From: a virus
DNA length: 37,836 bases
Virus genome (UHGV): UHGV-0166071
Direction: 5' to 3' (one strand)
This document shows positions 33,296 to 33,486 of the stretch, piece after piece. The notes under the pieces are model-generated. The model had not been told where the DNA came from. It did not search any database and saw only the letters and a program-made list of their open reading frames with translations. The position numbers and the translations under genes are program-made. Within the stretch, counting starts at the first letter, position 1. Each line of letters opens with the position of its first letter.

Positions 33296-33364
33296 GTCAT
33301 GGATGCGCCGAAAATCATCGGATCTTTCCCTTGTAAAAAAGTGGCTGGGCGATGATTTTTGACG

Positions 33365-33380
33365 TCCATAATATTATGGA
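33365..33380. promoter_or_regulatory. 16-bp perfect palindrome TCCATAATATTATGGA
   Basis: Exact self-complementary 16-mer in the AT-rich spacer upstream of the cassette genes; a candidate regulator binding site. Confidence 0.45.
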
Positions 33381-33457
33381 TGAACTGTTGCCAATTGCGC
33401 TAATTTTAACAAAATAATACTGGTTAACGCATTTTTTGAACCATCTGTACACAGTAG

Positions 33458-33486
33458 TTGTCTATACTTTACCTTAAAGGTAAACT
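33458..33486 (+). promoter_or_regulatory. candidate promoter (TTGTCT-17nt-TAAACT) overlapped by palindrome TTTACCTTaAAGGTAAA
   Basis: Hexamers at 33458-33463 and 33481-33486; 17-bp palindrome at 33468-33484 spans the spacer and -10; GGGAGGGG Shine-Dalgarno follows at 33511. Confidence 0.4.

Follow-up and report, generated by a model that had tools for sequence, protein, structure and literature searches.

The 225-bp intergenic stretch at positions 33296–33520 of the viral genome UHGV-0166071 is, with a probability that we put at about 0.65, the left end of an exchanged moron whose putative promoter carries an operator of the epsilon15 type, a 17-bp palindrome that would be an orphan in this prophage and would leave the moron likely to be constitutive. 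The whole stretch of DNA analyzed, hereafter the window, is 37.8 kb of lambdoid E. coli prophage DNA; prophage morons are autonomous promoter-gene-terminator cassettes that sit between late genes and are usually thought to be constitutive or host-regulated. What is unusual here is that a moron of one phage family bears the immunity operator of another.

We propose that the gap is where, on its left side, a two-gene moron begins, one that has been exchanged horizontally, occupies a cargo hotspot flanked by the hub and spike genes, and was captured from an epsilon15-like phage along with its promoter-operator unit. In the home system, the dyad at the core of the palindrome would occupy the -10/+1 region of about ten epsilon15-like transcription units, including those of repressor/cro, the c4/isrK-antirepressor operon, and the DUF2335 module to which the moron belongs; a helix-turn-helix (HTH) repressor dimer bound to it, just past the -10 hexamer, would block open-complex formation at the moron's sigma-70 promoter. 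With the cognate repressor absent from this prophage, the most likely state of the moron in the lysogen would be constitutive expression, driven by its own promoter; only the added presence of a phage of epsilon15 immunity, or possibly a weak affinity of the resident CI for the dyad, could shut it off. Two further repeats in the gap would stand outside this operator system and could form tandem hairpins on late transcripts that read through. The repeats, the limits of the module, the recurrence and genome-wide spread of the dyad, and the lack of the repressor gene are observed; the promoter, the binding of a repressor and the expression state are predicted here from sequence.

Three repeats in one gap

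The stretch is poor in G+C (40%, versus 50% across the window) and holds three repeats, all of them present as a preliminary description had given them: a 10-bp inverted repeat (AAAATCATCG at 33311–33320, with its reverse complement CGATGATTTT at 33350–33359), a 16-bp perfect palindrome (TCCATAATATTATGGA, 33365–33380), and the 17-bp palindrome (TTTACCTTAAAGGTAAA, 33468–33484), with arms of 8+1+8. That description also judged long perfect palindromes of this kind to be improbable by chance, which proves right for the two with 8-bp arms. Palindromes with arms of at least 8 bp and a loop of 0–1 number only three in the entire window, the mean in 200 block shuffles being 1.07, and two of the three fall inside the 225-bp gap, whereas such a pair within 225 bp arose in 2 of the 200 shuffles. 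Inverted repeats with arms of at least 10 bp and loops of 2–40, on the other hand, occur four times in the window versus 1.3 expected, with at least one in 61% of shuffles, and the 10-bp inverted repeat is unremarkable at the scale of the window. The window's third long palindrome, TTAATTGCGGCAATTAA (8+1+8; 37116–37132), lies inside a DUF2612-like baseplate gene (36612–37292).

A scan of the window found no second copy of any of the three repeats. Nor do they belong to a dispersed repeat element, a possibility that had been raised at the outset: of 5426 complete E. coli genomes, 16 contain the full intergenic region, each in a single copy and without exception at this locus. Neither palindrome fits the site of any of the host regulators considered (Fur, CRP, LexA, CpxR, TyrR, NarL, MqsA, HipB, Zur and others), a comparison that can offer leads only.

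Position and recurrence of the dyad

The core dyad of the 17-bp palindrome, TTACC-TTAAA-GGTAA (33469–33483), would extend from about -6 to +9 of the putative moron promoter. The predicted -10 hexamer is TATACT (33463–33468, plus strand), which reads TATAAT at the homologous position of a diverged relative, L151; with TATACT as the -10, the transcription start would fall within the dyad. How widely is this arrangement shared? We surveyed the 200 nt 5' of the first moron gene, a small open reading frame (ORF), in about 24 distinct lineages of the module. Exact TTACC-N5-GGTAA is present in the window, in L136/L098, L097/L096, the L044 group, the L043 group, L159–161, L162, and L152, and it lies 36–66 nt 5' of the small-ORF start codon except in L152, where it is 5' of an extra 69-aa gene; dyads with one mismatch occur in L100, in L094, and at a second L152 site (L152b). 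In other words, the dyad stands at an equivalent position in at least eight mutually unalignable module lineages, for a chance frequency of about 2e-4 per 200-nt region.

The dyad is always directly 3' of a -10-like hexamer (TATACT, TAAGAT, TAATCT, TAAAAT, CAAAAT, TATGAT or TACTAT), and a -35-like hexamer is often found 16–17 nt farther 5'. The N5 spacers vary by lineage (TTAAA, GAAGT, GATAT, GTATT, CGATT, TCAAA, CCAAA and CTAAA). Arms that are kept around a spacer that is free to change are, judging from the lineages compared, the signature of a dimeric DNA-binding protein and not of an RNA hairpin, and the RNA fold of the 17-bp palindrome has a z of -0.39. L151, the closest diverged relative, occupies the same hotspot, its small ORF being 54% identical to the window's; there the -10 (TATAAT) and the ribosome-binding block persist and the dyad is missing, which supports the promoter assignment and shows that dyad and promoter function can be uncoupled.

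A second dyad of the same 5-N5-5 geometry, TTCAAC-N5-GTTGA(A/G), follows right after the operator, in the 5' leader, in L159 (1469–1487), L162, L044, L136 and L156; it is absent from the window.

Distribution in epsilon15-like phages

In epsilon15-like temperate podophages (Uetakevirus), the same dyad is present in many copies. BUCT711 (L165) has 13 sites at no more than one mismatch (9 exact), versus 0.58 expected, and EC.W1-9 (L167) has 17 (11 exact), versus 0.70 expected. In BUCT711, the interval that separates the cro-like from the HTH repressor gene contains two adjoining sites (6402 and 6419), and pairs at OL-like positions are found at 7124/7187 and 4210/4272. Similarly, EC.W1-9 has sites at 40100/40148 between its repressor and cro-like genes and a further pair at 39326/39388, and additional sites stand 5' of the terS, tailspike and integrase genes, at the c4/ant leader, and at the DUF2335 module. 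Across the two phages, most early and moron upstream regions have a copy at their -10/+1. One EC.W1-9 site, 9730–9744, is the window 15-mer exactly, N5 included. Most of the sites in both phages adjoin a TTGACA-N17-(-10) promoter, and in podophage loci the dyad recurs two to four times within 3 kb. One of the dyad positions is the promoter of a leader that has the Rfam elements c4-a1b1, isrK and C4 antisense RNA and is followed by a Bro-N antirepressor gene.

Which protein would bind there? Each of the repressors of BUCT711 and EC.W1-9 (193–194 aa, 45% identical) has a pair of HTH regions but lacks an S24 peptidase domain, and the helix motif ANLVNRW is common to both. From the distribution of the sites we infer that TTACC-N5-GGTAA is the operator of the epsilon15-type family of double-HTH, non-cleavable repressors. 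This assignment would yield, as a by-product, the likely operator and regulon of the Uetakevirus-type repressor, with 13–17 sites per genome, the c4/isrK-antirepressor promoter among them. We found no published description of a TTACC-N5-GGTAA operator in the accessible literature, and neither the IsrK paper nor the ZX5 paper describes an operator.

P1-type immI RNA elements were also noted in P22/epsilon15-like E. coli prophages (L152, 1188–1383; L136, 125–330; L138, 2185–2382), all above or near Rfam gathering scores and all 5' of a Bro-N antirepressor gene, with the dyad on the promoter.

Orphan status

The window itself has one copy of the exact dyad. The sole other match, with one mismatch, is TTATCAAAATGGTAA at 8076–8090 in the resident OR region, and this sequence fits the operator type of the resident CI. 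The combination of multiple copies with sites at repressor/cro is not found in the window, whose immunity region has sites of the TTATC/GATAA type. Nor does the window encode a homologue of the epsilon15-type repressor, except for the N-terminal domain of CI (35% identity over about 70 residues, E 6e-8). Among complete E. coli genomes, a repressor gene of the EC.W1-9 type is carried by 557 of 5426 (about 10%). When we queried the genomes by megablast with a chimeric sequence, the module followed by the repressor gene, the 16 complete genomes with the module gave a single matching place each, and this gene was found in none of them. With the cognate repressor missing from the window and from these 16 genomes, the dyad would be an orphan, heterologous operator here, and conditional expression of the adjoining genes, which the preliminary description had deduced from the palindromes, becomes doubtful in this host.

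The moron and its cargo hotspot

The small ORF and the DUF2335 gene downstream of the gap are a self-contained moron, separate from the tail cassette. The small ORF (33521–33760, plus strand; 79 aa, PHROG 26284) has a strong Shine-Dalgarno sequence, GGGAGGGG, at 33511–18, and its 3' end overlaps by 80 nt the gene of a DUF2335 membrane protein (33681–34253, plus strand; PF10097, PHROG 3996 'moron'). An intrinsic terminator (34269–34288, plus strand; AAACCCGC-TTCG-GCGGGTTT and then a T-run) closes the moron. The palindromes had initially been taken to precede the tail-cassette genes and to control them; the unit that they adjoin, and that the 17-bp palindrome would serve, is instead this two-gene moron with a terminator of its own, and the spike gene starts only at 34311.

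Module boundaries emerged from comparison with other prophages. The interval between the hub and spike genes (32829–34310) of SEN34-like tail modules is a hotspot whose flanks are matched in about 300 E. coli genomes and in which cargo occupies two slots, a second by-product of the analysis. The baseplate hub gene (31764–32828; PF22759, PHROG 196) is followed in slot 1 by a gene for a 154-aa secreted protein with an N-terminal signal peptide (32831–33295, plus strand), which starts 3 nt past the hub stop codon. In L002, slot 1 holds instead an unrelated 114-aa secreted protein, 33298 being the point from which the sequence is again homologous to the window. In other E. coli prophages, the cargo of slot 2 is either two unrelated genes or a YafO-family toxin pair; homology breaks at 33348–33352 and resumes in the terminator at 34266–34269, which also serves as the right homology arm of the slot-2 site. 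By these breakpoints, the slot-2 cargo module, which comprises the upstream region, the small ORF and the DUF2335 gene, occupies 33353–34265 (plus strand) and is swapped as a block between prophages.

Between the two slots lies a conserved 55-bp linker (33298–33352, plus strand), which combines the relic 3' end of a gene with the left homology arm of the slot-2 site. It is found in 167 E. coli genomes, mostly within an annotated coding sequence, and it encodes the final 18 residues (MDAPKIIGSFPCKKVAGR) and the stop of an alternative slot-1 protein, with an ATG at 33299 and the TGA at 33353–33355. On this comparison, the linker in the window is a relic that remained after replacement of the slot-1 gene.

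Only one complete genome, KSC64 (L164; NZ_CP018840.1, 3476000–3491000), has a 100% match to the region, and its prophage is decayed, having lost the head, the tail tube and all of the early region past N; what is left of a truncated head-morphogenesis gene runs straight into that of the baseplate plug. The window must therefore come from a different, intact copy. Its early region encodes RecT, N, an S24-type CI, CII, O, NinG and Q, as in a lambdoid E. coli prophage, and its late region a SEN34-like myovirus tail. The only Rfam family above its gathering score in the window is the lambda cIII thermoregulator element (RF01804; 4337–4395, minus strand; 88.5 bits).

The small ORF has no RefSeq annotation, and the KSC64 record leaves a gap there. 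A protein search with the single sequence returned no matches, and a profile search recovered 51 unnamed homologues; the family is conserved, with at least 51 clusters in Enterobacterales and a core motif RRYxRAAGSxxDxxPxTDY...D...GDD, and with few exceptions its members overlap the beginning of a DUF2335 gene. The pair is found in the Klebsiella phages RAH1 and BUCT711, in Escherichia phage EC.W1-9, and in many IMG/VR contigs as well as Logan, NCBI and JGI contigs. A scan of the genome collection with DUF2335 gave distant relatives only, with unrelated flanks. The small protein has no Pfam match, and none of the three cargo proteins has a match in PADLOC or NCBIfam; an AlphaFold (AF2) model of the small protein has three helices at a pLDDT of 60, with no recognizable DNA-binding fold and a confidence too low for a fold search. 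A 'DUF2335 phospholipase' named in two papers on type VI secretion (T6SS) is, we suspect, a different domain and gave no usable functional lead. On the Dickeya fangzhongdai chromosome (L155, 1501–2167), a small-ORF/DUF2335 pair lies between a molybdopterin oxidoreductase gene and a gene of the RNase II family, and the 1.5 kb to its left and right are free of phage genes, which indicates that the pair can exist outside prophages.

The 16-bp palindrome and the inverted repeat

The preliminary description took the repeats for operator sites of a dimeric regulator. For the 17-bp palindrome, the recurrence across lineages and the multiple copies in epsilon15-like phages argue in favor of this view; for the other two we found no operator evidence, the 16-bp palindrome being single-copy and lineage-specific and the 10-bp repeat having one arm in relic coding sequence. 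The left arm of the latter sits in the relic end of the slot-1 gene, and the right arm starts with the relic CGA TGA and runs onward into the DUF2335 cargo.

Copies of the 16-bp palindrome are confined to modules nearly identical to that of the window; L151 has none. A scan of IMG/VR with an exact 14-mer of it gave scattered single matches and no multi-copy phage, and is uninformative. An 11-mer that it has in common with L101 (CATAATATTAT) is probably a chance match, as the regions are otherwise unalignable. Other lineages have AT-rich, zero-loop palindromes of their own 5' of the promoter (GAATGTTTAAACATTC in L136, ACAATTATCAATAATTGT in L043 and TTTGACTCATGAGTCAAA in L083), the mean best palindrome arm across module lineages is 6.0 versus 4.5 in shuffles, and the upstream palindrome of EC.W1-9, too, is single-copy in its own genome. 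Recurring, lineage-specific palindromes of this kind hint at a module-specific binder.

Alternative explanations

Several points weigh against an orphan epsilon15-type operator on a constitutive moron. The 16-bp palindrome, statistically the most striking element besides the dyad, is left outside the explanation. The count of none in 16 genomes is not significantly under the 10% background (1.6 expected, P ~0.18), and megablast could miss a diverged repressor of the same specificity. No copy of the window-type module falls below 98% identity, so that conservation of the dyad among them is silent on present function, and a metagenome scan for intermediate relatives returned only copies that are about 99% identical. 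The dyad is absent in L151 and in several other lineages (RAH1, L083 and L101), and the site is thus dispensable. The transcription start and the promoter are themselves predictions: the -35 available to TATACT is poor (TTGAAC, 21 nt upstream), and an alternative promoter, TTGTCT-N17-TAAACT, would put the dyad in its spacer. Additionally, the pairing of repressor with operator in epsilon15-like phages is deduced from where the sites lie.

Some of these same points would be expected if none of the three repeats had a present function, the operator being an evolutionary leftover and the other repeats chance occurrences or recombination scars. We consider this doubtful, while taking it more seriously than any other alternative. 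The missing cognate repressor, the near-identical copies with no sign of purifying selection, the loss of the dyad from L151 with the promoter kept, and an inverted repeat that spans a recombination junction all fit a relic. However, drift should degrade such a site, and the dyad is perfect (10/10, and extended to 8+1+8) even though the module proteins are only 23–55% identical to those of all other lineages; two perfect palindromes with 8-bp arms would also have to share the gap by accident, as they did in so few shuffles. Meetings with the cognate repressor in trans are plausible as well, given its gene in roughly every tenth E. coli genome.

A role in RNA is unlikely, and would concern the two repeats that our explanation leaves aside: as tandem stem-loops at the 3' end of the slot-1 message, the 10-bp repeat and the 16-bp palindrome would stabilize that message or would weakly terminate or insulate late-operon read-through into the moron. 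As RNA, the inverted repeat (33311–33359, with 29 nt between its arms) can form 12 pairs, one of them G-U (33309–33320 with 33350–33361), and the palindrome a stem at 33363–33382. The fold of 33296–33390 consists of these two adjoining hairpins, right after the slot-1 stop, at -27.7 kcal/mol (z = -2.57), which 4 of 200 shuffles equaled. In L002 the repeat straddles the slot-1 stop codon, and in L151 nine of its ten pairs persist, G-U counted, one of them through a compensatory change of both bases from A-T to G-C. A function as RNA stabilizer or insulator is possible on these grounds, but this covariation comes from a single comparison, 10-bp repeats are common by chance, and the right arm is missing where slot 2 holds other cargo (L003 and L004). 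Moreover, the stems are AT-rich and have no U-tract; a terminator scan of 33296–33520 found none, the nearest being that at 34269–88, and Rfam has no match in 33296–33520 and, across 32700–34400, only a sub-threshold rsmX match that falls on that terminator. An RNA role for the 17-bp palindrome is disfavored by its conserved arms and variable loop, by the predicted start inside it, and by its weak fold.

If the 17-bp palindrome is an operator, could the resident CI or Cro be its ligand, so that the moron would be repressed in the lysogen and released on induction? The resident CI (7303–8007, minus strand) is of the S24 peptidase type, and the homology of its N-terminal HTH to epsilon15-type repressors, given above, is one argument for this. 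Its operators share the 5-N5-5 geometry of the moron dyad: TTATCGAAATGATAA in OL (5857–71) is an exact TTATC-N5-GATAA, and OR (8027–8090) contains TTAGCAAATGGATAA at 8027–41 and TTATCAAAATGGTAA at 8076–90, with one natural half-site reading GGTAA. In the 37.8 kb, the loose pattern TTANC-N5-GNTAA occurs at four places only, the three immunity sites and 33469, versus 0.33 expected, although the pattern was defined after the sites had been seen. The moron dyad has 8 of 10 specified positions in common with the resident consensus and differs by one base in each half-site, so that both half-sites deviate from GATAA, the preferred resident form, and the recognition helices differ as well (SQLTQ versus ANLVNRW). 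The identical module, dyad included, also resides in the MEI1A-0323 prophage, which has textbook 434-type operators and no TTANC-N5-GNTAA in its 20-kb early region; the dyad is not generally matched to the resident repressor, and we regard control by the resident CI or Cro as quite improbable. A general rule, under which every copy of the module would answer to the repressor of the phage that carries it, is not supported either, the palindrome of RAH1 (GTATTGATTTCAATAC) being absent from the RAH1 immunity region. The resident immunity region (5857–5871 and 8008–8120) is a common one, matched over 80% or more of its length in 216 E. coli genomes.

Finally, we think it very improbable that the small ORF encodes an antitoxin-like repressor of its own promoter with the DUF2335 protein as a membrane-acting partner: the layout of a small gene overlapping a larger downstream one is toxin-antitoxin-like and kept across phage types, a YafO pair takes the same slot in other prophages, and the lineage-specific palindromes of the window, L136, L043 and L083 would fit a co-evolving binder and could account for the 16-bp palindrome, but the small protein has neither a database match nor a recognizable DNA-binding fold, the dyad is common to lineages whose small proteins are only 23–40% identical, and its presence at about ten unrelated epsilon15-like promoters, the immunity region included, points to a phage repressor and not to the module.

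Implications

A captured moron with an orphan epsilon15-type operator makes a testable prediction: moron expression in the lambdoid prophage should be constitutive unless a foreign epsilon15-type repressor is present. A long shot is that the operator has been kept for action in trans, the moron answering to the immunity repressor of a co-resident or invading epsilon15-like phage. If this were true, the site would represent regulatory eavesdropping between heteroimmune prophages, the moron might act at the membrane in exclusion or abortive infection, and the module would have in the 16-bp palindrome a further control site of its own. In other words, an operator that acts in trans would mean cross-talk between unrelated prophages, and one that does not would be a regulatory relic carried along by module exchange.

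Comparison with known systems

Phage P1 combines a C1 repressor and dispersed operators, each an asymmetric 17-mer, with a c4-icd-ant immI operon. The epsilon15-like phages resemble P1 in having 13–17 dispersed operators, a non-cleavable HTH repressor, and a c4/isrK antirepressor operon that bears the dyad; they would differ from it in that the epsilon15-type operator is a symmetric 15-bp dyad, and the window differs in having one isolated copy, with no repressor of this type, c4 RNA or antirepressor found. Type II toxin-antitoxin operons offer another likeness, in that a small gene overlaps a larger one, a palindrome lies on the putative promoter, and a YafO pair occupies the same site elsewhere; unlike in those operons, the small protein has no detectable DNA-binding domain, and the dyad appears to be part of a phage-wide regulon. 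Like the CI/Cro operators of the lambdoid phages (lambda, 434 and P22), the moron dyad is short, has half-sites about 10 bp apart, and lies over predicted core promoter elements, but it stands 25 kb from the immunity region and is single, not tripartite. A further parallel is with prophage morons in general, with which the cassette shares a promoter-like region, non-structural genes, a terminator of its own, a place between tightly packed late genes, and alternative cargos at the same site. Unlike the usual moron, the cassette in the window would bear an operator for the immunity repressor of another phage family.

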